Virus record (IMG/VR): IMGVR_UViG_3300010334_000030
Span: 32,001-96,000 of that record
Reading direction: 5' to 3' (one strand)
From: a virus
Length of the DNA: 64,000 nucleotides
A program made the translations under genes and the position numbers. A model generated the notes under the pieces. That model was not told the DNA's origin. It did no database searches and was given only the letters and a program-made list of their open reading frames with translations. This document shows positions 6,481 through 32,688 of this stretch, piece after piece. The first letter of the stretch is position 1. Every line of letters starts with the position of its first letter.

Positions 6481-8154
<1,674 letters not shown>

Positions 8155-8198: not shown

Positions 8199-9545
8199 TT
8201 ATATATTAAAGTTTGCTGCTATTCTAATACCATACTGACTATTTTTCGATTCTAAGCTTGGCACCATATCGTCGTAGTGGTAATAAACTCTCCATGCTCC
8301 ATTAGGGTTAGGTTCTTCCCCTCCATTTGTTTCGCTTGAAGTCCAGTAATAATAATATGGATTATACGCATCACCAATTGCATCTAGCCTTTTATTAAAA
8401 AAATCTTTATGGTCACTTATATAAGTGTGATAAGAAAGAGTTGGCAAAAATGCATCCGGATATCCTGCAAGGTTTCCATAAGCTCTAGCAGCCCATGCAG
8501 CAGTTGCTTCATAGTTAGGATATCCTGATGAGTATGCAATAATAGTATCGGTATTACTCTTACCTGCTGTTATGTCATTAGATGTACCCAATTCTATCAA
8601 AGGAGCTTCTGGCTGTGTCCAGTCCATATTACCAGCATCGGAAGACCAGCCTAAATCAACTATTCCATCGGCATGACCATTTTGGAGATTATTTATCGTT
8701 ATGATAGTACCGCCACCGTAAGACTGTCCAACAAATAGAGGATTATTTTTTTTATATCTCACAGCAAACTTACTGTACATGTAGGCTACTTCTTGCGCTG
8801 ACAATACTCTGTTATACATCATTGCTATAGACATCATTCCGTACATGTAGTTGTGATTTTCAAAAACCTCTAGAAAATCACCTATTTTAACTATTTGATC
8901 ATTTTCAGTGCCGTATAGAGGGGTGGTATCATCATAATTAGATGCCTCTAAAATACCATCTATATAAAGACTCCATCCAGCATCTACAGACCAGGTAACG
9001 CAAACAAAATACCACGTGCCAGGAAGTATTGGATGATTTTTATCTCTATCTGTTTTAACACCTCCTCCTCCGTTATTATTTGCCCATATGTTTGCGCCAT
9101 CATACCATAGCCTATGTGGGGATCCTGCATTTGTAATAGTACCACTAAGAATGTCTTGTATGAAAGATTGGCCATAGTTAGGTCCTGAGTTATAACCTAT
9201 ACTATTAAAATTAACCCAAACACATTTGCTATAACTTGTGTTTGGAAACTCGACGCCAGTAATAGGGGCTGGCCGATCTCCTTCAAATGTTAAAGCCCCA
9301 ATACTTTTCTTTCCATTGTCCGCGTAACCCCAAGTGTCCATCCCAGCTGAAACGTTAAAAGCAGTGTTTCTTCCCCGTCCGCTTAAATCATACCACTCAT
9401 GTGTGGTAATAGAAGAATCAGTCCATGAATAGGGGTTTCCTGCATCAAGGTATAAGATTAGCCCATCCGTTATAGGATCTATTTGGTTAGCCCCAACGGT
9501 AACTCTGCCAGTAAGATTAGCGCTGCCTGCAATGTTTACACTCAT
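8199..9545 (-). CDS. LamG/concanavalin-A-like domain protein with DUF1566-like (C-type lectin fold) C-terminus
   Basis: [11 protein letters not shown]...WYDLSG and WYFVCVTW...LYIDG...[10 protein letters not shown] (LamG); VGQSYGGG...GKSNT...FLPT...YWTSSE...AW. Likely start at 9545 (ATGA overlap with upstream stop). Confidence 0.75.
8200..8207 (-). promoter_or_regulatory. AATATATA putative late-promoter motif
   Basis: Overlaps the stop of the upstream gene, about 45 nt before ATG at 8154. Confidence 0.45.
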
Positions 9546-10693
9546 ATAAGTCTTGCTCCAATTTTTATTATCCAATCACTGGTACCTGTTACATTCGAAT
9601 ATAATGAAATGCCAGTGCCACCGTTATTTACCACAGTAAAAGAAACTTCAGACGTTCCTGTTGTTCCTGCTGCATCCGGCGTGGATGTGTCAGTCCACCT
9701 TACGTCTCCTGCCGCATTCCAAGCAGCCATCACTGTTCCTGCTCTAAAACTTGACATTTCATCATCTATATGATAGTCAAAATAAGCCGCATGATAATTT
9801 CCAGAAGATATATCAAAACCTATTAGTAGAGACGGGGAAATAGCAGTATTAACAAGTGATGTAATAGTATTAATATAATATGTCCCATTAGAATTAACTG
9901 CAAATGCAGGATTGCCTTGTATTTGGCCAACAGAGAGGATATTCCCATTAGTCCCTGTATCTCCAGTTAATGTAAACACAGTTCCAGAAGCTCCAATCAC
10001 ATTGACTATATCCCCCGATGTTCCGCCAGCAGCACCAATCTCCAGAAGAGTGCCGTCAAATGTCATATTGGCCTCTGCATTGGCAGCATTAGTAGTCCCA
10101 TCGGATGTTAAAATCCGGGTTGCACCTGGATTAGAGATTGTATCAAATCCAGGACCTTGTGGTCCTGTCTCCCCTGTTGATCCAGTAGCTCCAGTTGATC
10201 CTGCAGTTCCGGTAGCTCCTGTAGCTCCTGTAGCTCCAGTTGATCCAGTTGATCCAGTTGATCCAGTAGCTCCAGTTGATCCAGTTGATCCAGTTGATCC
10301 TGTAGCTCCAGTTGATCCAGTTGATCCAGTTGATCCAGTAGCTCCAGTTGATCCTGCAGTTCCGGTAGCTCCTGTTGATCCTGCAGTTCCGGTAGCTCCT
10401 GTAGCTCCAGTTGATCCAGTTGATCCGGTAGAACCTGTTGATCCTGTTGATCCTGTTGATCCAGTTGATCCAGTTGATCCAGTAGCTCCTGTAGGACCTA
10501 TAGGACCTCCTGCAGGGCCAGTTGGACCTATTGGTCCAGTAGGACCCGTGCCACCTCCACCTCCGCCGGAAATCGTTATCTCATCGCCCAGACCATTGTA
10601 AAAATTACCAAATCCATCAGTCTGTAAAACGTTCTGAAATGTGAATGAGATCTTTTGGTCGGTGAGGTTATAATTTGGATTATTACCTGACAT
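9542..10693 (-). CDS. Collagen-like fibre protein
   Basis: Long G-(S/A)-T triplet run plus C-terminal beta domain (AAYFDYHI...[10 protein letters not shown]). Confidence 0.8.
10150..10550. repeat. 9-bp-period tandem repeat encoding collagen G-x-T triplets
   Basis: Arrays of gatccagtt / gctcctgta units. Confidence 0.9.
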
Positions 10694-10694
10694 C

Positions 10695-11522
10695 TTATCT
10701 TCTGCTTAAAGATGGTGATTGAATTGAAACCCTTTTGTAAGTACCGACTCTGAATGGACTTTCCCAGGGGATAAAAACAACATCATCTACTATTATTTCT
10801 AAAAAAGCTGTTCCTGTTGTTCCTTCTGGAAGCACAGTTAATTTCTTTAATGGAACTTGACAAGTTCCATCTTTTCTTATAGAACCATCAAATGTTAAGT
10901 TCCAAACATCTGTCTTTAAAAATAATCTAGCTTTGTTGCTTTCCTGACTTCCCCCTTCGATGTTAACTTTACATTCAAATGTTTCATCAGAATCTCTATG
11001 AAAAATATACTCTTTTCTTCTTATAATTGGGCCTAAAGATTCAGGCTCATCATATCTTGTTGTATTGCGAACTGGTTCGCTTTCTTCATATCTTGGAGTT
11101 TCCCTGGGTCCTTCATTAACTGAAGATTTAGCGGGGATTGAAGAAAATTCAGATTCACTTTCCATAAGAAGAGCTTCCTGGAAAGGACTAAGTTTTCTAG
11201 TCTCGCTAATAGGTTTCTTTTTCTTGATTGGAGGAGCCTGTGGTTTTTTCTTTTGAGGGATCCTCTCAGAAATGTCTTGAGACTTCGTTTCTTTTAGAAC
11301 CTCATTTATATTTTCTAAAGTAGAATCTATAGAAGGGTGAACAGGGATTTCCCGTTTTTCCTGTATTGGTTCTGGTGCAGGTGCTGGGATTTGCTTAGGT
11401 GCCGAATTTTCGATGAAACGGGATCCAAGTGTGGATCTAATAAGTCCCTCTACAGAATTGTGACTTTGCACGTTTCTGTTGCCCATTCCTAAATTTTTGA
11501 TATATCCTCCTATTACGCTCAT
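10695..11522 (-). CDS. Hypothetical protein: charged, disordered N-half and compact beta-rich C-terminal domain
   Basis: 275-aa ORF with several I/L/V-x-E sites; tightly packed with neighbours. Confidence 0.6.
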
Positions 11523-11524
11523 AA

Positions 11525-11893
11525 TTATCTATTGGAAGACCAGTCTCTGTAGTCTTTTAAATTTTGAAGATTCTTCTTTCCCTTTCTTCTTTGCTTAGAA
11601 TCCGGGTCTAAAAATGGAACTATTTTTCCAGGACCATGGGGTTTAAAAATAGGCATGGTCTTTGATGGAATTGGTTCCAAGCTCATTGGCAAATCTTTGA
11701 TCTGTTTTTCATCAACCAATCCCTTATGCTTTGTAGAAGCAAAATCCTTCAGCTGCTTCTTTGTCATCTTTTTAGACAAAGCAACGATCTCATCCCTATA
11801 TTTTGGATTAAGATCAGATGGTTGAATATCCCCGGTTTTTATACCGTAGGCAAGTCCCATTAGTCTCTGTTGTGATTTTGTAACTGCTGGCAT
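11525..11893 (-). CDS. DUF3008-like protein
   Basis: MPAVTKSQQRLMG...MTKKQLKDFASTKHKGL resembles the DUF3008 pattern; start at 11893 fits the upstream motif. Confidence 0.65.
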   Translation of the reverse strand: MPAVTKSQQRLMGLAYGIKTGDIQPSDLNPKYRDEIVALSKKMTKKQLKDFASTKHKGLVDEKQIKDLPMSLEPIPSKTMPIFKPHGPGKIVPFLDPDSKQRRKGKKNLQNLKDYRDWSSNR

Positions 11894-11907
11894 AGTTTTC
11901 TTTCTTG

Positions 11908-11915
11908 TATATATC
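11908..11915 (-). promoter_or_regulatory. GATATATA putative late-promoter motif
   Basis: Directly after a terminator, 14 nt upstream of ATG at 11893. Confidence 0.6.
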
Positions 11916-11917
11916 AT

Positions 11918-11948
11918 AAAAAAAGACCTAAAGATATAGGTCTTTTTT
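11918..11948 (-). terminator. Intrinsic terminator
   Basis: Minus strand GACCTA-TATCTT-TAGGTC followed by a T run; A/T flanks could make it bidirectional. Confidence 0.6.
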
Positions 11949-12170
11949 CTTTTTTTTCCATTCAGAATCGCTAATAGGTTTAGAAGAAAGACCCCAGTTT
12001 TTATCGGGATCTATAATTTTCTTCTTATTTTTATGCCAATCATTGAAAGTCCAGACGAATCTATTGTAGGCTTTTCCTACTGTTTTAAATCCGGTATCCC
12101 CTGGTTGGATAGCAATTGGGGATTGTGGTGGTGCATATGATCCAATTTCTGCACTTTTAGTTTTGGACAT
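11928..12170 (-). CDS. Hypothetical basic protein
   Basis: 80-aa ORF overlapping the upstream gene by 14 nt. Confidence 0.55.
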   Translation of the reverse strand: MSKTKSAEIGSYAPPQSPIAIQPGDTGFKTVGKAYNRFVWTFNDWHKNKKKIIDPDKNWGLSSKPISDSEWKKKKKDLYL

Positions 12171-12381
12171 CTTCGTTGCTGATGACAGCCTCTATTTTTG
12201 TTTTTGAGATGTTAGTGGTCTCAAATCCACCCACTGTACCATCAAGATACTTGGCCACTTTGGTTTCCACCTCTATGACAGATTCTCCCGATACAAGGAA
12301 TTCGATCTTTTTGAAAACCGGATCTCCGTTTTGTTTAACATCACCAGTCTCGAAATTTACTTTTACTAAGTAGTAACTCAT
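12157..12381 (-). CDS. DUF4494-like small protein
   Basis: YLVKVNFE...NG...KKIEFLVSGESVIEVETKV resembles the Bacteroidota DUF4494 pattern. Confidence 0.5.
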   Translation of the reverse strand: MSYYLVKVNFETGDVKQNGDPVFKKIEFLVSGESVIEVETKVAKYLDGTVGGFETTNISKTKIEAVISNEDVQN

Positions 12382-12404
12382 TTAATTTAGGTTTTAAAGG
12401 TTTA

Positions 12405-12584
12405 TTAATTTACTTTCTTTTTAGCATCTTGAACTTCAACTCTTAAATCTTGAGCCATTTTCTTAAGATCTTGCATGGCTTGTCTAACCCTGGTTCCTGC
12501 TGAAGAATTACCTTTTTCAAAAACCTTAGTGATGTCTGGTTTTAAGCTCTCCAGCAGAGCCTGCATTTTTTCAAACGTTTCCAT
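12405..12584 (-). CDS. Histone H1-like Hc1-family small protein (Bacteroidota type)
   Basis: 59 aa, below the ORF-track cutoff: METFEKMQALLESLKPDITKVFEKGNSSAGTRVRQAMQDLKKMAQDLRVEVQDAKKKVN; the KGN.SAGTRVR..MQ.LK..AQ..R.EVQ signature. Confidence 0.75.
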   Translation of the reverse strand: METFEKMQALLESLKPDITKVFEKGNSSAGTRVRQAMQDLKKMAQDLRVEVQDAKKKVN

Positions 12585-12637
12585 AATTAATTGTTTTTTT
12601 TAATCTATATTATATGTGTCAAAAAACCCTTTGTTTC

Positions 12638-13177
12638 CTATCTGCTAATTAACACCGAATTTTTTGTAGATCCCTCTTGAACTCTCCAATTTTCACCTAG
12701 ATATGAAATAACTATAGATTTCATATATTCAATATAGGTTCCTTTACCTTGGAAAGAAAGATTTTGTTGGATTTCATCGTAGATTCTACTCACCTTTGGA
12801 TTCAATTCCAAATAATTCAAAATACATTTAGAACAAATTTCCATAAGTCTAGAAACTTCACCGCCTGAAGCTTCGAATTTTTCATCATGCTGATCAGGAA
12901 TCTCCTCTTTGTCAATTGCAAGATCCTCTATAATTTCCGGAGAGATTTGATTTAGAGCTAAAACGCAATATGAATTTTTAGCACCTGTGATCATTTCTTT
13001 ATCTGAATATTTTCCTATGGTTAAATGATATCCCATATGGCCTTTCTCATCTTCGCTCTCTATATTAAAGAAGTAGTGGTAAACATCACTAACTTTTTTT
13101 AGTAAAAATGGCGAAGTTCCAAATCCATCAGATTCATAAAGACCTGAATTGAATTCATTAAATCTTAATATTTTCAT
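12638..13177 (-). CDS. Hypothetical protein, probable internal head protein
   Basis: N-terminus MKILRFNEFNSGLYE resembles a T4 capsid-targeting sequence; 20-nt overlap with upstream gene. Confidence 0.6.
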   Translation of the reverse strand: MKILRFNEFNSGLYESDGFGTSPFLLKKVSDVYHYFFNIESEDEKGHMGYHLTIGKYSDKEMITGAKNSYCVLALNQISPEIIEDLAIDKEEIPDQHDEKFEASGGEVSRLMEICSKCILNYLELNPKVSRIYDEIQQNLSFQGKGTYIEYMKSIVISYLGENWRVQEGSTKNSVLISR

Positions 13178-15242
13178 CCTCTTGTTTATTATTTTTAGAT
13201 TTTTTTAGTGCTCTTCTTTTTGGTTTTTCCCCTTCTGTTAGACTTTCAGCGCTTGGTTTTTTTAATTCATCAGATTCTTTAAGTTCAACATCATTTAATG
13301 CAGTAACGAAAGACTGATAGAAAGATGCAACAGAAGCAGGAACCATTTTTTTAAATCCCAGAAAATCCTCATTTTTCAACTTCTCTCTCACGTCAGTAGA
13401 GGATGCAGATCTTGGAGTTTCTATGATTTTTATTTCTTGTGGGAAATCACTTCCGTGCTTTTTGAGATACTCTTCTTGTTTTTTATAGTCATCAACTCTA
13501 TCATCGCCTGCACCTATAGCTTTTATAATAAATCCATGTTCTTTAGCTGCACCATAAGCAATTCCTAATAATCCTCTGTTTACTATATAAAAACCTTTTA
13601 TTAAACTCTCTTTCTCTCTGACTAAACTCTCCATATATTTTCTAACTAAATCCAAACTAAATGGAGATTTTTTAGACTTACTGTGCCCTGGGTGAACTAC
13701 TGCTATTATACAAGGGAGATTGTTTTTCTCCTTCATAAAGGTAGCCATTTTTAAATGACCATTATGGAAAGGCTGAAATCTTCCAAGAATAACATTTACC
13801 GGTTCAAGCTCTTTCTTTTCCTCTTTATCTTCCTTCTTCTCATCCTTCTTAGAATCTTCAGTGAGTTTAGGTTTTCTTGATGTGTCTATTTTTTCAATAG
13901 CTGAAATAAATTCATTATATGAATAGAATTCTCCATCTTCCTCGTTTTCGACCTCACTAACATCTTCACTCTCGACAGTTAAATAATCTATCTTTCTTCT
14001 TCCCAGACTCTTTTTAAAGTCTAAAAATGAAGGTAAAGAAACAGACTCTGAAACATTCTTCTCTTTCTTTCCTGATATTCTTTTCTCCAACTGAGAAACT
14101 AGAGAATTGAATTGATCCATAATCGATTGTGTGATTATTCCACCTGGTCTCTTTTTTATCTTTCTGAAAGAATTAAGAATCAGCTTAAATAGGGATTCAA
14201 ATGATTCATCAAGATCAACATACTTTAAAACACGTTTGTCTTTGATCATTCCCTTGTTTAACCTAAAGTCATCTCTCTTAAGATACTCCGGTTCTTGGAA
14301 ATCTGCATTTTTATATTTAGAAGAATACTCGTCAAGAAATTTAGAAAAAACATCAGACATAAAAGAAACATATCTTTCGTCTTCAGTTTCACCGTCCATT
14401 GAGAATGAATCTACACCATTCTCTAAGATGAAATTCATAACGTCTAATATAGCTATACCTAAGAAATCACTCGGCTTATCCTCTCTTTTCTTCTTGGCCT
14501 TAGATTTAGCTAGCTCAGTGAAAACCGGATTTACCATCTTAGATAAAACTGGTTCGCCTTCTTCAACATCCTTACCAAATCTAAATACTATACCTTCGAT
14601 AGGTTTTTCTAAATCGTGGTTTAAAGCAGTAGTTTTAAGCTCAGGATTAAGAACCCCAATTATGAATGCAACAAAGCTTCTAGTTTTATATTCATTCACA
14701 AGGTCTTCAAATGGGGTTTGAAGAAAATTCATAATCTGAGATTTTTGATTTTCATCAAGTTCTCCCTGGAAAATTATCGGAGGTCTTTCAACACCAATAA
14801 GATCTGCCCAAGTATCAAGCTTCTCTTTATCTTGTATAGTACCCTGTGCATTTCCACTTAAATCTTTTCTGTGAACATAGGAAAGGATAAGATTGTTTTT
14901 AGGAACCCTATCGTAAACAATTTCAACTGGATTATTACTTGAAAAATACTCTAAGCCAAATCTCCATCCTCTAGGGATCTTTTGAATTACGTGAGGAGGA
15001 AGAGACTCGATATAGTTTATAGGCTTCTCGTAATATTTCATAAGAGTTCTATCAACGAGTGTAATTGGATTTCTTTGATCCCTTTTGTAAAAAAGAAATT
15101 TACCAGTTTCAATATCTCTTTCAAAAATAAATGCAGAACCATCCATCTTCTCATTCACAGTCACGTATGAGTTCAAAAGCTTATCTACGAATTCCTTGCC
15201 CTTCTTGTTATAGAGATCATATAAATGAACGATTCCTGACAT
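13158..15242 (-). CDS. Fusion of an ATP-dependent ligase-type (Rnl2-like) nucleotidyltransferase domain and an HxGH cytidylyltransferase/NMNAT-like domain
   Basis: Motif I VNEKMDGS, III GLEYF, IV PIEGIVFR, V LSKMV; C-terminal ILGRFQPFHNGH...SPFS...GAGDDR...SASSTDVRE. Confidence 0.75.
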   Translation of the reverse strand: MSGIVHLYDLYNKKGKEFVDKLLNSYVTVNEKMDGSAFIFERDIETGKFLFYKRDQRNPITLVDRTLMKYYEKPINYIESLPPHVIQKIPRGWRFGLEYFSSNNPVEIVYDRVPKNNLILSYVHRKDLSGNAQGTIQDKEKLDTWADLIGVERPPIIFQGELDENQKSQIMNFLQTPFEDLVNEYKTRSFVAFIIGVLNPELKTTALNHDLEKPIEGIVFRFGKDVEEGEPVLSKMVNPVFTELAKSKAKKKREDKPSDFLGIAILDVMNFILENGVDSFSMDGETEDERYVSFMSDVFSKFLDEYSSKYKNADFQEPEYLKRDDFRLNKGMIKDKRVLKYVDLDESFESLFKLILNSFRKIKKRPGGIITQSIMDQFNSLVSQLEKRISGKKEKNVSESVSLPSFLDFKKSLGRRKIDYLTVESEDVSEVENEEDGEFYSYNEFISAIEKIDTSRKPKLTEDSKKDEKKEDKEEKKELEPVNVILGRFQPFHNGHLKMATFMKEKNNLPCIIAVVHPGHSKSKKSPFSLDLVRKYMESLVREKESLIKGFYIVNRGLLGIAYGAAKEHGFIIKAIGAGDDRVDDYKKQEEYLKKHGSDFPQEIKIIETPRSASSTDVREKLKNEDFLGFKKMVPASVASFYQSFVTALNDVELKESDELKKPSAESLTEGEKPKRRALKKSKNNKQEDENIKI

Positions 15243-15267
15243 AATTTTATTTTAAAACTTTATTACT

Positions 15268-16197
15268 TTATATTGTATTTATTTCACTCGGAACTGGTAA
15301 TCCAACTCTAGTTAGATATTCCAAAAATTTAGTTTTGATGTGAGGAAGCTGATCTCTCAATTCAAAATTAGGCGATGTGATAATCTTAAACACATCCTCA
15401 AATGTTTTAACGTCATTCTGAGAGTATCCCTGACCTAATGCGAAATCTATAAACTCCTGGGGATTATTAGTTACGAATCTTTCACTACCCGGAATTTTAG
15501 CTGCATTTTTAAGTCTTGCTTTAATCTTTCCTCTGTATGATTTAGTGTGCCAGAATAGTCCATCACTTAAAATCAGTACTGGTGTTTCGTAATCCATAAC
15601 CTGACCTTCATCATCTGTGTTTATAACTTCGGCTCTAGCTGATAATATAGCTGCTAATAACCAGTTACGGTGAGCAGATTTATATTTGCTTTCACCCTTT
15701 TTGTAATCAGGAGAATAGTAGATAAACTTAGACCATGTCATATCTGATAAAGGAATAAGATCTAACTGAACCTCACCTTTACCTGGATCTCCTTCTATTG
15801 GCCAGCCTAAACTAACTATATTAAGTCCTGACATTAATCTGATCTCCGGTTTAAATCCAAGAGATTCCTCTAGCTCAGCATCGAGTATATCAAAAACTCT
15901 CTTAGCACATTCCTTATATCCAATCCCCTCTTTTTGGGAAAACCAATTTCCATTATACCCAATATCAAGGTCACCAGACGTATCGTCTGGATTTTCTTTC
16001 TTCCCTATACTTCCAATAACAACATAATTGGTTCCTTCTGAATTTGGATCTATCTCTAATAGAGGGAATAATATATTTTTAATGTTTTCCATTGTTAAAG
16101 AAAATTCAGCCTCTCTAATTCTTCTTGAGCTTTTTATAGCAGCACCGCCCTCGAAGATTTTAGAGAATCCAGAAAAATTTAAAATCTTACTTTTCAT
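15268..16197 (-). CDS. DNA polymerase-beta-superfamily nucleotidyltransferase
   Basis: IGSIGKK...SGDLDIG (GS plus DxD) and third acidic residue in VQLDLI; CTS-like N-terminus MKSKILNFSGFSKIFE. Confidence 0.7.
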   Translation of the reverse strand: MKSKILNFSGFSKIFEGGAAIKSSRRIREAEFSLTMENIKNILFPLLEIDPNSEGTNYVVIGSIGKKENPDDTSGDLDIGYNGNWFSQKEGIGYKECAKRVFDILDAELEESLGFKPEIRLMSGLNIVSLGWPIEGDPGKGEVQLDLIPLSDMTWSKFIYYSPDYKKGESKYKSAHRNWLLAAILSARAEVINTDDEGQVMDYETPVLILSDGLFWHTKSYRGKIKARLKNAAKIPGSERFVTNNPQEFIDFALGQGYSQNDVKTFEDVFKIITSPNFELRDQLPHIKTKFLEYLTRVGLPVPSEINTI

Positions 16198-16756
16198 AGG
16201 GCCTTAATCTGTCATAATATCTTTCCATAGCTCCACTTAAATAGTCGCTGTAAACTCTTTCGTCTCCATTCTTAGGATTTTCCGGGTCGTATCCCTTGCC
16301 AAAATAACCTTTCCCTTTTAAAACACCAGAGGTGTAGAAATCTTGGGCATCCTTTTGGGTTACATTTTTTCCTTTAATGTTTTTAGCTTCCCAGCTATCT
16401 AAAACATCATCTTTCTTCTGCTCCACTCTATCTTTAGACATCTTAGCAAATGTGTCTTTATTATCCCCAGTTGAGAAGAAATCAGCTACGGCAGCACCAG
16501 CACTGAATATCAATCTACCAAATAAAGAAAAAACATTTTTTGCTATGTTAACAGGATCTTCCCCACTATTTTGATAAGAATCTCCCTTTCTATATTCAAT
16601 GTCACTTCTAAGACCAGATGACATTCCCCTCATCCATCTGCTAAATTTGGTTTTTCCTTTATCAGATGGTGCATATTCTGAAGATCTCCCTCTTGAATAA
16701 TACCTGCTAGATTCACTAATGGATTCAGAAAAAGCCTCGAATTTTTTAATTCTCAT
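16187..16756 (-). CDS. Hypothetical protein, probable internal head protein
   Basis: MRIKKFEAFSESISE N-terminus; first gene after the promoter motif at 16777. Confidence 0.6.
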   Translation of the reverse strand: MRIKKFEAFSESISESSRYYSRGRSSEYAPSDKGKTKFSRWMRGMSSGLRSDIEYRKGDSYQNSGEDPVNIAKNVFSLFGRLIFSAGAAVADFFSTGDNKDTFAKMSKDRVEQKKDDVLDSWEAKNIKGKNVTQKDAQDFYTSGVLKGKGYFGKGYDPENPKNGDERVYSDYLSGAMERYYDRLRPYEK

Positions 16757-16776
16757 TGGGAACTTCTATTTTTCTA

Positions 16777-16784
16777 TATATATC
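16777..16784 (-). promoter_or_regulatory. GATATATA putative late-promoter motif
   Basis: Intergenic, 20 nt upstream of ATG at 16756. Confidence 0.6.
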
Positions 16785-16790
16785 CCCTGG

Positions 16791-18314
16791 CTAGAGTTTA
16801 ACTTTAAAAATTTTATACTCAAACCCCTCTTTTTTGTAAATCTGGAGTCTGACCTCCCCATGTTTAACTAAATAGTTTTGATATTTGCTACTACTGAAGT
16901 CATCTACAAAGTCTATTACGTTAACTTTCTCCTTACCCTCCATCTTTCTCATCCCTCTTCCTAGGCTCTGCTTAATTAGGACCTCGCTCTTATATGATTC
17001 AACCAGAAATATATTATGAATATTGTTAATTGATATACCAGTAGCAAATGTGCCGTATGTGGCTATTAGGATCTTATTACCGCCCGCTGCCATTCGACCC
17101 TTATATTCTTCTCTTAAACTCTCGTCGGTGTCGCCATCCACGTAAAACACCTCTTTATCGCTAGTTTTTTCCCTTATAAGATTCCAGATCTGCTTTCCGT
17201 ACTCATCCTTTACTGATTGGAAGAGAACCAAAGAGTTCTTGGAAGTTTTTGTGATAAAATCAACAACATAATTAAGTCTCTTCTTGCTTTCAATAACAAG
17301 CTTTCTCTCTATGTTGTAAACATCATTCCCCTCAAGGTTGTTGTGATTCGTCTTCAGTTCTGCTAATTTATCTTTGTACTCCTGATCCAACCAATCTAGC
17401 ATCACTATTTTAATTGAAACTGGGGTAGCATAATTATTATCAAAAAGAAAGCTTGGCGGGATCTCGACCATTAAAGGACCTAGAAATTGCTGAATTGTTA
17501 GATAATCGGCGGTTCCCCTTTTTGTTAGGGTTCCAGTAAGTCCATATCTCCACCTAGAGTGCATACAATTAGACATGATCTTCTTAATTGACATTGAATT
17601 GGTGTGATGGGCTTCATCCACAAAAACTGCATCAACCTCTTCAAAAAACTCTGGATCCTGTTTTACTAAAGATTGGAAGGTTCCTATAATTAGGTCACAT
17701 CCTTGTCTAAGCTTATTTCCCCCACCTATCTGTTGGATCTTAACCCCAAGCTTTTCCAACCCATAATCATCAAAGTCTTCCGTTCCCTGAATAACTAGAT
17801 TGTTATTAGGGGCAACCATCATAAACTTACGTATAAGTCCTTTACTTTTAAGATAAGCAAAGATCATAAAGGAGATTAGGGTTTTTCCTGACGATGTAGC
17901 AACTTCAGAAACAGAGTATCTATATTTGATCAATTTCCAGGCTGTCTCTATCTGATAATCACGTGGCTCCATTTTAGAGTCAGAAAAAAATTCATTTACC
18001 CATAGGGTAAAGTCATCAAGGGTTAAATCTTTCAGAATAAGATCATCTAAACCTTCTATCTCTATCTTTATTTTGTAGTCTTCTCCAATTTGCATTAGCT
18101 CTCTCCAAAGACCAATAGGGACTCTCATAAAAGGTCCCTTTTTATCAACAAAGCAAACACTTCCATCCCAAATTTTCTTTTTGACTAGAGGGTGGAAATA
18201 GAAGTTGTGGATCTTCTTCGTCAGCGATATTTCTATTTGTTTCTTCTCGATCTCATCTGGAGATTCTATAAGAACCATCCACTGTTGATCTTCTGAAACT
18301 TGAAATTTAAGCAT
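16791..18314 (-). CDS. uvsW: UvsW-like SF2 DNA helicase
   Basis: PRDYQ, ATSSGKT (Walker A), VDEAH, GLTGT, QSLGRGMR; WDG N-terminal motif as in T4 UvsW. Confidence 0.9.
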   Translation of the reverse strand: MLKFQVSEDQQWMVLIESPDEIEKKQIEISLTKKIHNFYFHPLVKKKIWDGSVCFVDKKGPFMRVPIGLWRELMQIGEDYKIKIEIEGLDDLILKDLTLDDFTLWVNEFFSDSKMEPRDYQIETAWKLIKYRYSVSEVATSSGKTLISFMIFAYLKSKGLIRKFMMVAPNNNLVIQGTEDFDDYGLEKLGVKIQQIGGGNKLRQGCDLIIGTFQSLVKQDPEFFEEVDAVFVDEAHHTNSMSIKKIMSNCMHSRWRYGLTGTLTKRGTADYLTIQQFLGPLMVEIPPSFLFDNNYATPVSIKIVMLDWLDQEYKDKLAELKTNHNNLEGNDVYNIERKLVIESKKRLNYVVDFITKTSKNSLVLFQSVKDEYGKQIWNLIREKTSDKEVFYVDGDTDESLREEYKGRMAAGGNKILIATYGTFATGISINNIHNIFLVESYKSEVLIKQSLGRGMRKMEGKEKVNVIDFVDDFSSSKYQNYLVKHGEVRLQIYKKEGFEYKIFKVKL

Positions 18315-18317
18315 TAA

Positions 18318-19007
18318 TTATTCTTTATTTTTATAAGACCATAAAAATCCACCTGCACTTTTACCCCTTCCGTTTAAAATTTTAGAAATAGAGCAAACCC
18401 CAGTTTTTTCTTGTGCCTCTTTAATTGATTCAAACTCATTAATAAAAGCTCCGGACATATCCATTTGAATAACAGGCTTACTTCTAGATTTTATCATTTT
18501 ATTTATACTATCTTGAGAAAATTTGAATCCAAGGGTTCTTTTGTTACCCTTCATTGATTCATGAATTTTTTTTAAATGTTTTGATTGGTTTTCAGTAAGA
18601 ATACCTTTTTTGGAAAGCCCCAGATTTTTTCTATGCTCCTCCGTAAAGAATCTATTTCCATTTCCCTCCCCACCATTACTAAGATTTCTTAAAGGTCCAT
18701 TTTTTAAATCAAATCTACCTATTGTCACTATCATTTCATTCTCTATGGAAAATGAATCTTTCTCATTAAGATTCTCACTATATTTAATTATTACCGGCTC
18801 CAATCCGCAATCCAGTATTTTTTTAATTATATGATACTTAGGAAGATTCGAATATTTCCCGCGTTTAACTTTCTGTAAATGTATTCTGCTTCTAAAATTC
18901 CTACCCTTCCCTACATAAAAAGGCTCATATTCAAAGATATACTTCCCGTAAGCCCAATTTCCAGGTTTTCTTGGATCTAAATAAACATAAACATAATAAT
19001 TATCCAC
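18318..19007 (-). mobile_element. Free-standing GIY-YIG homing endonuclease with NUMOD3/NUMOD1-like DNA-binding modules
   Basis: YYVYVYLDPR...FYVGKG...E...L.N...GGEG; FTEEHRKNLG; KPVIQMD..G.FINEFESIKEA; GTG start. Confidence 0.8.
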
Positions 19008-30903: not shown

Positions 30904-32688
30904 TTAATATATATCAGGTATAGTAAAAAAGCCTCCTGATCCTCCTGTATTTACTGTGCTAGTTGTTCCTGGGGTTATTCCAGTACTATAAGCTCTCCAA
31001 TAAACACCAATTCCCCCTGTAAATCCCCCTCCCGTAGCTGGCCTATAAATGGTAAAATCCATTGCTTGAGCTTTGAATGGGAGATTAACTACTCTATTGA
31101 CAGTTCCTGATGTCCCTCCATATCCGATATAGCCAAACCCATTATAGTTTGAAGTGTCAGAAAAGCTGGAAGGGCTGGAAGGGTAGCCATACCCTGAATA
31201 AGTATCAGATACACAATATGCAGTAAAGCTAACAGATTCCCCGGAGAGAAGGAAATTTCTGCTAGCAGTAGGCCCTGTTGACGAATATGTGTCATTCCAT
31301 CCTCCTGATCCTGAATAAAATCCAATCCCAACATAAGATCCTTTAGCTCCTCCTAAATTTGGAAAATTCGGAGTAAAAACTAAAGTATTCCCGCTAGTAA
31401 CCGGAACTACACCTAGAATCCCATTCTGCTGTGTGATTGTGAGTGTTTCCGTATATGGCTGAGATAATAAATACCACGAAACAACTTCATTTGTTCCCGT
31501 TGGACCACTGGCAGATGCTGTTATTCCTGAGAGATTTCCTGGAAAAATTATAGGCGAATATGAAGCACCAGTCAAAAGTTTGCCTCTAGAATCAAGATAT
31601 GATTTGTTTACATTTTGAGATTTGAAAGAAAAAGCATAGTTCTGGAGGGAAGATGCTGACAATGAATCATTTTCTCTCTCTACAGAAAGAAGTGATCCAG
31701 GTAATCCATTTATTCTTAGTACAGGAATTTCAGAAACAGAATTAGGGTAATTGAGATTAAAAGAATTCCTAATTTGAAGTGAGCTTCCATAATTAGGTCC
31801 ACTGTAGTATCCCTTATTGTAAGTCAAAAATTTAGAATCGATGACGAAGTTAGACGAATTTATCTGTATACCTCCAGTGGCATAGATCCCATTAAATCCG
31901 GAAGTTCCAGTAACCCCGACTCCATAATTAATAAACATGCTTCTTCCTGAGGATAAAGTAGAGGAATCAAAAGAGAAAGAAATTCCACCAGAAGCTCCAA
32001 GAGAAAATGATCCTCCCGGAATTCCCCATAGCAATGAGCTATTATTAATGCCTGGTGAAGTCCATTTAAATACTGGATGCTGTCCATAATCTAAAGGTGA
32101 ACCTGTTTCTAGATTTGTTTTAGAAAACTCAAGAAGTGCTCCTGAATTTACTGACGAATCAGTGGATATCACAAATTTGGAAAGATCCGGATTTGTTGGT
32201 CCTGCTTCTGGATTACTGTCTGAAAAAATAAAAGAATATAAGCTAGGATCTATCTGATTTATTATTAGAGAAGATCCGGTCAATCCGGAAGCTGGACTTG
32301 CATTATCTCTATACCTACTTTCCACTATAGAAAAAACCTCACCAGTCGAATTTAAATTATATCCAGTAGGGGTCCAGCCATAATCAGTAAAAATGCTAAT
32401 CTCACCATCATTGCTATTAACCCAATAGTCACTTAATATAATCGGATTATCAATACCACCTATTGGAGCTGAAGATGAGATTAACCACTTGCTCCCTCTG
32501 ACTCCAGAATTTCCTGTTTGTCCCTTTGGCCCAATCTCACCTATAGGACCAGCGGGACCGGTTTCACCCTGAATTCCCTGAGATCCCCCATGAAGCTCCA
32601 ACGTTTCATCAAAATTATTATTTAACTTATTTATAATAGAGCTCTGATCGTCATTATAATTTATAGCTAATATATTCGTTTTTGGCAT
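30904..32688 (-). CDS. Collagen-containing baseplate/fibre protein, paralogue 1
   Basis: DDQSSIINKLNNNF, 10 triplets, RGSKWL, SKFVIST. Confidence 0.7.
   Translation of the reverse strand: MPKTNILAINYNDDQSSIINKLNNNFDETLELHGGSQGIQGETGPAGPIGEIGPKGQTGNSGVRGSKWLISSSAPIGGIDNPIILSDYWVNSNDGEISIFTDYGWTPTGYNLNSTGEVFSIVESRYRDNASPASGLTGSSLIINQIDPSLYSFIFSDSNPEAGPTNPDLSKFVISTDSSVNSGALLEFSKTNLETGSPLDYGQHPVFKWTSPGINNSSLLWGIPGGSFSLGASGGISFSFDSSTLSSGRSMFINYGVGVTGTSGFNGIYATGGIQINSSNFVIDSKFLTYNKGYYSGPNYGSSLQIRNSFNLNYPNSVSEIPVLRINGLPGSLLSVERENDSLSASSLQNYAFSFKSQNVNKSYLDSRGKLLTGASYSPIIFPGNLSGITASASGPTGTNEVVSWYLLSQPYTETLTITQQNGILGVVPVTSGNTLVFTPNFPNLGGAKGSYVGIGFYSGSGGWNDTYSSTGPTASRNFLLSGESVSFTAYCVSDTYSGYGYPSSPSSFSDTSNYNGFGYIGYGGTSGTVNRVVNLPFKAQAMDFTIYRPATGGGFTGGIGVYWRAYSTGITPGTTSTVNTGGSGGFFTIPDIY
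30908..30915 (-). promoter_or_regulatory. GATATATA putative late-promoter motif embedded in the last codons (D-I-Y) of the upstream gene
   Basis: 25 nt upstream of ATG at 30882. Confidence 0.45.

Follow-up and report, generated by a model that had tools for sequence, protein, structure and literature searches.

In this study, we describe a four-gene block, at positions 12,638 to 16,784 of a 64,000-nucleotide stretch of phage DNA, that may form a late operon for proteins carried in the phage head. The stretch, referred to here as the window, covers positions 32,001 to 96,000 of IMG/VR record IMGVR_UViG_3300010334_000030 and is contained in a 141-kb phage contig (G000) rated ~51% complete. Three of the four proteins (g189, g309 and g179) begin with a common leader resembling the capsid-targeting sequence (CTS) of T4 internal proteins, and the fourth, g694, an RNA-ligase-type module fused to an HxGH nucleotidyltransferase domain, has none. 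We put the probability of the explanation as a whole at roughly 0.55; that is, a late cargo operon with g189, g309 and g179 tagged, g694 untagged, and a fill-and-seal chemistry shared between g309 and g694. The block consists of the following genes (window coordinates throughout, unless stated otherwise):

16187-16756, minus strand: g189, an open reading frame (ORF), the first of the four
15268-16197, minus strand: g309, a predicted PolX-like nucleotidyltransferase with palm and thumb
13158-15242, minus strand: g694, the ligase-type and HxGH fusion
12638-13177, minus strand: g179, conserved over ~160 aa after its leader

The overlaps of 11 nt between g189 and g309 (16187-16197) and 20 nt between g694 and g179 (13158-13177) agree with those in a preliminary description made from the sequence alone. 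That description also proposed a ligase-type domain with KxDG and motifs III-V but no oligonucleotide-binding (OB) or Pnk domain, an HxGH domain, a Pol-beta-type nucleotidyltransferase and capsid-targeting-like peptides on three of the four proteins, and each of these assignments was borne out by the evidence below, the third being sharpened to PolX-like.

The leaders carry the argument for packaging, and those of the block are:

N-terminus of g189, minus strand: MRIKKFEAFSESISE, then S
16150-16197, minus strand: the 16-residue leader of g309, MKSKILNFSGFSKIFE, then GG
N-terminus of g179, minus strand: MKILRFNEFNSGLYE, then SDGFG

All three fit the consensus M-K-x-(I/L)-x-x-F-x-(E/D)-F...(I/L/V)-x-E. 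Of 130 N-termini, 5 show a strict form of the pattern, where its internal frequency would predict 0.11, and 9 show a loose form, where ~1 would be expected, an enrichment of ~9- to 45-fold. The leader is kept in 106 of 120 g309 homologues. Across 23 of these, its F8, F11 and E16 are invariant, as are the G17 and G18 that follow; the homologues from Lak phages and protein P0391 begin at the mature EGGAA motif, without the leader. The same leader is present on the three genes directly 3' of the major capsid gene and on several others, and an (I/L/V)-x-E-S sequence is also found close to the N-terminus of the capsid protein (as PLIE followed by S) and of the protease precursor. Outside the window, an adenylate kinase (G000:C1:16882-17496; L101:583-1197, minus strand; Pfam ADK, E 1.3e-38) bears the leader MAKIKKLSEFEINE within a 23-residue extension, the complete ADK domain starting at residue 24, and from its sequence it looks like a second recognisable enzyme apparently tagged for head packaging.

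The phage itself is a T4-like jumbo phage, and its host is probably a member of Bacteroidota. The contig encodes a gp23-type capsid protein (profile match to PF07068, E 4.7e-38) and a gp21-type prohead protease (Peptidase_S77, PF03420, E 4.2e-9), and related contigs reach 238-482 kb, two of them having terminal repeats and being rated complete. In T4, the CTS, MKTYQEFIAE, is cut once by gp21, and the internal proteins are diverse, unrelated cargo with the CTS as their sole shared feature (PMC8442874, PMC3012670, PMC9026906). The likeness to T4 IPI-IPIII extends from the short N-terminal leader, with its aromatic residues and its (I/L)-x-E end, to a variable locus of diverse, fast-evolving cargo in which the leader is the only shared part, and to the genome itself, which encodes both a protease of the gp21 family and a capsid protein of gp23 type. 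The leaders here differ from the T4 CTS in being 13-16 residues long with a consensus of their own, F-x-E/D-F, and their role in packaging and their cleavage are predicted. By analogy, the simplest reading is that they would be the CTS of this phage group.

The timing of expression is suggested by a promoter-like motif and the genes that follow the block:

16777-16784, minus strand: GATATATA, a late-promoter-like motif 20 nt 5' of the g189 ATG
12405-12584, minus strand: Hc1 histone-like protein (PF07432, E 4.5e-23), synteny kept in 67 loci
12157-12381, minus strand: DUF4494-like protein (PF14902, E 8e-5, below the cut-off), synteny kept in 65 loci
11919-11948, no strand: hairpin with a 12-bp stem and T-runs, a candidate end of the transcription unit

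The number of GATATATA copies in the window is within chance (9 observed, 5.95 expected; 17 of 100 shuffles reach 9). All nine are on the coding strand, most copies across the 141-kb contig lie 12-37 nt 5' of start codons, and the genes so headed include that of the prohead protease, other genes with leaders, and genes for tail and structural proteins. By analogy, GATATATA may be the counterpart, in this phage, of the T4 late promoter. The next copy is at 11908-11915, directly after the hairpin. Since there is no further GATATATA and no convincing terminator between the g189 promoter and the hairpin, the transcription unit probably comprises seven genes, running on through Hc1, DUF4494 and an 80-aa gene. 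The motif had been described as heading four genes; its position 5' of g189 stands, but the unit it heads is probably longer. Given a leader signal found across the genome, a gp21-type protease encoded in it and a late-promoter-like motif in front of the block, we consider packaging of g189, g309 and g179 in the head plausible, by analogy with T4.

The best-defined of the putative cargo proteins is g309. Its AlphaFold2 (AF2) model has a mean predicted local distance difference test (pLDDT) score of 82.5, with residues 1-18 disordered. When the model was compared with 48,161 PDB representatives using VIA-align 2 ('VIA-wide'), the top 8 matches were all family X polymerases (Z 8.4-9.4), spanning residues 24-266; the top matches include Pol X of African swine fever virus (ASFV), Pol beta, Pol lambda, terminal deoxynucleotidyltransferase, and the Thermus and Leishmania PolX enzymes. 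ASFV Pol X aligned over 163 of 176 residues (Z 9.4), covering both palm and thumb, whereas other Pol-beta-fold nucleotidyltransferases aligned over ~95 palm residues only (Z <=7.8). The best Foldseek match was Pol lambda. The catalytic residues G62, S63, D76, D78 and D146, the GS...DxD...D signature already recognised in the preliminary description, are invariant in 23 homologues. No Pfam family matched at E <=0.1, and, as in ASFV Pol X, no N-terminal domain precedes the palm. On its modelled fold, g309 is therefore a PolX-like palm-and-thumb enzyme, a more specific assignment than Pol-beta nucleotidyltransferase. An identity as RlaP was considered and rejected; g309 has no match to PF10127, its orthologues were not picked up when genomes were searched with PF10127, and it gave a probability of 0.3% in hhalign against the RlaP of relative G004.

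Among predicted viral structures, the closest to g309 are uncharacterised jumbo-phage proteins (e.g. from Atu_ph07), followed by giant-virus PolX. The Prevotella Lak megaphages encode a leaderless homologue with 31% identity (Lak-B2, L091:4016-4993, with TAG read as Q) and have no g694 homologue. In L091, a second Pol-beta-type nucleotidyltransferase is encoded near the g309 homologue on the opposite strand. In protein P0391, encoded in a T4-like contig (L092:6001-7797), the leaderless homologue is fused to a PD-(D/E)XK nuclease of RecB/Cas4-like type. Both this fusion and the replication genes nearby point towards DNA, or an RNA-DNA hybrid, as the substrate of fill-and-seal. The block is surrounded by gp32, UvsW and DNA polymerase genes, structural genes adjoin it, and in relatives of the phage gp32 and family B DNA polymerase genes likewise lie near it. 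A DNA-directed role for the PolX-like family is suggested by the PD-(D/E)XK fusion, by the gp32/UvsW/DNA polymerase context, by the presence of Hc1 in the unit and by the precedent of ASFV, which packages Pol X, a ligase and a histone-like protein with its genome (PMC12172490).

The proposed partner of g309 is the N-terminal part of g694, whose domains are arranged as follows:

14478-15242, minus strand: residues 1-255, RNA-ligase-type adenylyltransferase domain (K32, E98, E216, K235)
14067-14477, minus strand: residues 256-392, all-helical domain (AF2 helices 259-390, high pLDDT)
13803-14066, minus strand: residues 393-480, disordered acidic and lysine-rich linker (pLDDT <50)
13293-13802, minus strand: residues 481-650, HxGH (HIGH-superfamily), NMNAT-like nucleotidyltransferase domain

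An AF2 model of the first 470 residues, built from a 78-sequence alignment, has a pLDDT of 86.9, rising above 90 for residues 1-255. Motif I is K32-M-D34-G35, and motifs III, IV and V are present as E98, E216-G217 and K235, motif V having one lysine only. The best Foldseek match to the ligase domain was T4 Rnl2 (E 6.9e-8), which in VIA-align 2 gave Z 11.7 (rmsd 3.7, 197 residues aligned) and was statistically tied with NgrRnl, REL1 and Rnl1; DNA ligases scored lower (Z 7.4-8.4). The match to PF09414 (RNA_ligase) was 19.5 bits, below the cut-off of 27, and 22.6 bits in the genome search. g694 resembles T4 Rnl2 in the placing of its lysine (near residue 32-35) and of motifs III, IV and V, in lacking an extension at the N-terminus and in having a C-terminal domain made of helices; it differs in its ~15% identity and sub-threshold Pfam score, in the single motif-V lysine, in a larger helical domain and in the C-terminal HxGH domain. 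Neither an OB nor a Pnk domain was found by Pfam scan, in the AF2 model or by structure search, and the structure search established no match for the helical domain, residues 256-392. As modelled, the module is a divergent Rnl2-type RNA ligase with intact catalytic residues and a predicted ligase activity. The preliminary description allowed that it might prove to be an ordinary DNA ligase. This identity is rejected, as there is no PF01068 match, a helical rather than an OB domain follows, and RNA ligases score higher; a gp30-like DNA ligase (PF01068) is encoded by a separate gene (G000 133611-134942).

The N-terminal module belongs to a large family, with at least 447 clusters at 50% identity (322 with E <1e-10), and occurs in three forms; stand-alone proteins of ~400-450 aa, e.g. 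in phages LR756502 (642 kb) and LR756501 (735 kb), which keep the helical domain; proteins of ~600-700 aa in which the module is fused to an HxGH domain; and proteins of ~1000-1290 aa with further extensions of no known identity. No homologues of g189, g309 or g179 were found by phmmer in LR756500-502. In LR756500 (L004:4210-4695) and LR756501 (L005:7384-8079), genes for S-adenosylmethionine-dependent methyltransferases adjoin the g694 homologue.

The RNA-ligase character of this module raises an unlikely alternative, namely that the block serves cytoplasmic tRNA repair against host anticodon nucleases, with the nucleotidyltransferase restoring nucleotides, the RNA ligase resealing, and the leaders unrelated to packaging. 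The ligase domain is of RNA-ligase rather than DNA-ligase type, these phages have further RNA ligase paralogues, and associations of Pol-beta nucleotidyltransferases with RNA ligases have been described before in jumbo phages (PMC7824862, PMC9503650). The RlaP systems are indeed alike in placing a Pol-beta-superfamily nucleotidyltransferase beside an RNA-ligase-family enzyme in a jumbo phage. However, g309 has no PF10127/RlaP profile match, its thumb matches templated PolX enzymes and it carries a packaging-type leader, while the ligase here, itself a divergent paralogue, has an HxGH domain attached, and a canonical RNA ligase is encoded elsewhere in the genome. No Pnk, 2H or KptA partner was seen, and neither KptA/Tpt1 nor an NAD-dependent DNA ligase, either of which might have linked the block to NAD+, was present in the 5 genomes searched. 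Repair of tRNA would also leave the late expression, the leaders and the protease unexplained.

The C-terminal domain of g694 contains GRFQPFHNGH at residues 487-496 and SSTDVR at 614-619 and matches Pfam CTP_transf_like (PF01467, E 1.2e-7). A clade profile matched archaeal NMNAT MJ0541 (E 1.3e-7) ahead of NadM (1.3e-5) and PPAT (3.4e-4). By sequence, it is therefore closest to archaeal/NadM NMNAT, ahead of PPAT, and its substrate is predicted on that basis; scores against the curated NCBIfam models fall below their cut-offs (28.6 against 127 for NF002243; 22.1 against 181 for TIGR01527). A Nampt-family enzyme is encoded in 3 of 4 complete relatives; none was found in the remaining one, G002, which has the fusion, or in this ~51%-complete contig.

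These observations invite the reading that g694 serves mainly in NAD+ salvage, performing the NMNAT step of a NadV/NMNAT, NARP2-type counter-defence; the ligase module would then be degenerate or serve in regulation, and the genes around it would be cargo without relation to it. We hold this to be possible but doubtful. NAD+ reconstitution by phages is established, as pathways NARP1-3, none of which contains a ligase fusion (10.1101/2024.02.11.579819; PMC13464706). In support of salvage, the GRFQPFHxGH and SxTxxR motifs are of the NadM/archaeal NMNAT type seen in the NadV/NadM pathways of KVP40 and NARP2, Nampt-family genes are found in most complete relatives, and in relative G001 the g694 orthologue holds the sole PF01467 domain of the genome. 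Yet g694 scores far under the NMNAT equivalog cut-offs, with PPAT nearly as close, and unlike the salvage enzymes it lacks a Nudix domain, is fused to a ligase, is not adjacent to Nampt and lies in a late operon, which would be odd for a counter-defence needed early. Moreover, G002 has the fusion and no Nampt, G004 has a separate NadM-like gene beside its Nampt, and the ligase residues are fully intact in this phage, their loss elsewhere correlating with HxGH loss.

The evolution of the block was followed in a neighbourhood survey of 80 related loci with 44-76% identity. Members of the close clade share the order helicase, g189, g309, g694, g179, Hc1, DUF4494; the first of these is the upstream neighbour of the block:

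16791-18314, minus strand: UvsW-like helicase (Pfam ResIII/Helicase_C, PHROG 16)

A UvsW-like helicase gene lies upstream of g694 in 84 loci, and also in LR756500 (a 462-kb phage). Both g694 and g179 are present throughout the surveyed loci, with g179 downstream of g694, often directly, in those inspected. Between the helicase and Hc1, variable leader-bearing ORFs occur among the 80 loci, and thioredoxin in some. Since leader-bearing ORFs vary around a constant g694 and g179, this stretch behaves like a variable cargo locus around an anchor, comparable with the T4 internal-protein loci. The anchor gene g179 retains its leader even when fused; in the g694-g179 ORFs P0008 and P0244 an internal start is kept, MK..F..F..xE, followed by SDGFG. 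At the other end, g189 shows only 36-38% identity to its counterparts in relatives, against 60-75% for the genes next to it, and its positional analogues in distant loci keep the leader on a body that cannot be aligned. Small and fast-evolving, g189 is a candidate internal (ejection) protein. It has no match in Pfam, PHROGs or NCBIfam, and neither for g189 nor for g179 was a family or fold found in these three, in a PDB profile search or in Atlas. In L041, a thioredoxin-like gene (6686-7009, WCGPC) stands in place of g189, as in some relatives, and three extra paralogous leader-bearing genes (236, 362 and 228 aa; 9965-12987) lie between g694 and g179.

The survey also bears on the coupling of the enzymes. 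The preliminary description treated its three nucleotidyl-transfer folds as one system, but they do not co-occur consistently; nearly all members of the clade at 44-50% identity lack g309 and have other genes in its position, and L045, L051 and L054-56 lack it as well. Where g309 is present in the loci inspected, the HxGH motif is canonical, and the distant L076 and L082 keep GRFQPFHNGH. The distant clade lacking g309 has NxGH, and L054-56 lack both histidines, with L045 and L051 as exceptions. This hints at a functional coupling between the presence of g309 and the integrity of HxGH, as seen in the loci inspected and uncorrected for shared ancestry.

Conservation of the catalytic residues of g694 is likewise uneven. 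They are intact in this phage and its close clade, but not throughout the wider family; the motif-I lysine is kept in 168 of 210 relatives and gone in 42 (~20%). The C-terminal domain is present in 166 members, of which ~60% retain H/TxGH, whereas NxGH is found in many and both histidines are gone from some. Loss of K32 and loss of HxGH are positively associated (K+H+ 84, K+H- 84, K-H+ 11, K-H- 31), in counts that ignore phylogeny. One idea, that the HxGH domain pre-adenylylates 5' ends for lysine-less ligases, is ruled out, since K32 loss accompanies HxGH loss.

T4 RNA ligase 1 (gp63) also has a tail-fibre attachment activity. A comparable non-catalytic role for the g694 family, as an assembly factor or chaperone for which enzymatic activity is dispensable, would fit the 42 relatives without the lysine, the whole sub-clades in which neither K32 nor a canonical HxGH survives although the full-length protein is still encoded at its usual place, and the late expression of a block that adjoins structural genes. 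We judge it quite unlikely. Every catalytic residue of both domains is kept in the phage and its close clade, which argues for selection on catalysis here.

A further question is whether g694 itself enters the head. The preliminary description saw a pathway whose enzymes, the ligase-HxGH fusion among them, are made in advance, carried in the head and injected together before phage expression. Packaging of g189, g309 and g179 is plausible, as set out above, but extending it to g694 is unlikely, as its N-terminus is a structured, conserved part of the ligase domain with no leader. What favours such an extension is that g694 comes from the same late unit, that the tagged g179 always follows it, sometimes within one ORF, making piggy-back packaging conceivable, that adenylate kinase is leader-tagged too, and that the disordered linker holds the leader-like PSFLDF...TVE followed by S, and FYSYNEFISAIE. 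In this part of the linker (window 13900-14030, residues ~403-449), the motif ES..PxFxDFxK is family-wide, with F406 invariant, and the close clade also has FYSYNEFISA(I/L)E, which is T4-CTS-like. Against this, the short core [FY]x[DE][FY], taken by itself, is no rarer than chance, so that we treat the internal motif as a lead only; ES..PxFxDF is also present in the stand-alone homologues of LR756502 (L006) and LR756501 (L005) and may be structural in this family; and the three folds co-occur inconsistently. In a variant that we find similarly improbable, g694 would also be cargo, by way of g179 or the linker motifs, and would be split by the protease into ligase and NMNAT-like modules. If true, these modules, with the tagged PolX-like enzyme and adenylate kinase, would form a self-sufficient injected kit that would polymerise, seal, recycle AMP and make NAD+ on the incoming genome, ahead of all phage gene expression.

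The model we favour, a late operon with tagged g189, g309 and g179 and untagged g694, would proceed as follows. The leader would direct g189, g309 and g179 into the prohead core, where the gp21-type protease would cut it off after Glu, and the mature proteins would remain in the head and be ejected with the DNA; g694 would be made at the same time from the late unit, untagged. Where phage nucleic acid is broken or gapped, the PolX-like g309 would fill or extend 3' ends, the ligase module of g694 would seal the ends so processed, and its HxGH domain would make NAD+ or a related adenylylated dinucleotide. The sequences and models show how the genes are arranged, their folds and catalytic residues, the enrichment and modularity of the leader, the protease gene, the promoter motif and the synteny; we infer the packaging, the cleavage, the substrates and the cooperation of the enzymes.

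We suggest fill-and-seal because of two precedents, the packaged set of ASFV (PMC12172490) and the described repair systems of RlaP and RNA ligase (PMC7824862), both of which had been overlooked when the combination was said to match no characterised pathway. The ASFV repair set consists of Pol X O174L, ligase NP419L, an AP endonuclease (acting at apurinic/apyrimidinic sites) and histone-like A104R. It is alike in that its Pol X, a minimal fold of two subdomains, is the structure that g309 matches best, in that polymerase, ligase and histone-like protein are encoded together and late, and in the notion that repair enzymes travel with the genome. It differs in that the ligase here is of RNA-ligase type, fused to HxGH and without a packaging leader, in that no AP endonuclease was seen here, and in that g309 has no sequence-level homology to ASFV Pol X.

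Several points weigh against this model. Packaging and cleavage would follow by analogy with T4, in a lineage that is uncultured. With no leader on g694, the injected PolX would lack its ligase partner unless g694 rides along. Since most of the 44-50% clade lacks g309, as do L045, L051 and L054-56, the pairing is not obligatory, and with ~20% of the family lacking K32 and ~60% keeping H/TxGH, a non-catalytic role for the g694 family is possible. The PolX match is moderate (Z 8.4-9.4) with no Pfam match, the HxGH scores are far under the NMNAT family cut-offs, G004 has its separate NadM-like gene next to Nampt, and the counts associating K32, HxGH and g309 ignore phylogeny.

The capsid targeting of T4 is known for small, basic inhibitors; in the phage described here an equivalent system appears to bring recognisable enzymes into the head, namely a minimal PolX-like polymerase and an adenylate kinase. 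Confirmation of this would widen the known range of proteins injected by tailed phages, in a large and widespread group of uncultured jumbo phages, and the leader with its (I/L)xE end would provide a sequence rule for predicting ejected cargo from metagenomes. The Rnl2-like/NMNAT-like fusion family is uncharacterised and places two nucleotidyl-transfer chemistries in one polypeptide, and the repeated loss of catalytic residues within it offers a case study of transitions from enzyme to pseudoenzyme.

Other features of the region were seen in passing. In L022, L025, L026, L051, L067 and L078, the UvsW-like helicase is split into parts of ~330 and 312 aa by an ORF of ~270-290 aa, ~3-6 kb 5' of g694, and the insertion is probably a mobile element or of intein type. 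In the window, a 229-aa ORF (18318-19007, minus strand) lies between one GATATATA copy and the UvsW-like helicase gene; its N-terminus, YVYLD...YVGKG, appears by eye to be like that of a GIY-YIG homing endonuclease. In the structural region downstream of the operon, a 383-aa protein (9542-10693, minus strand) has long collagen-like G-S/A-T-G-x-T-G repeats.

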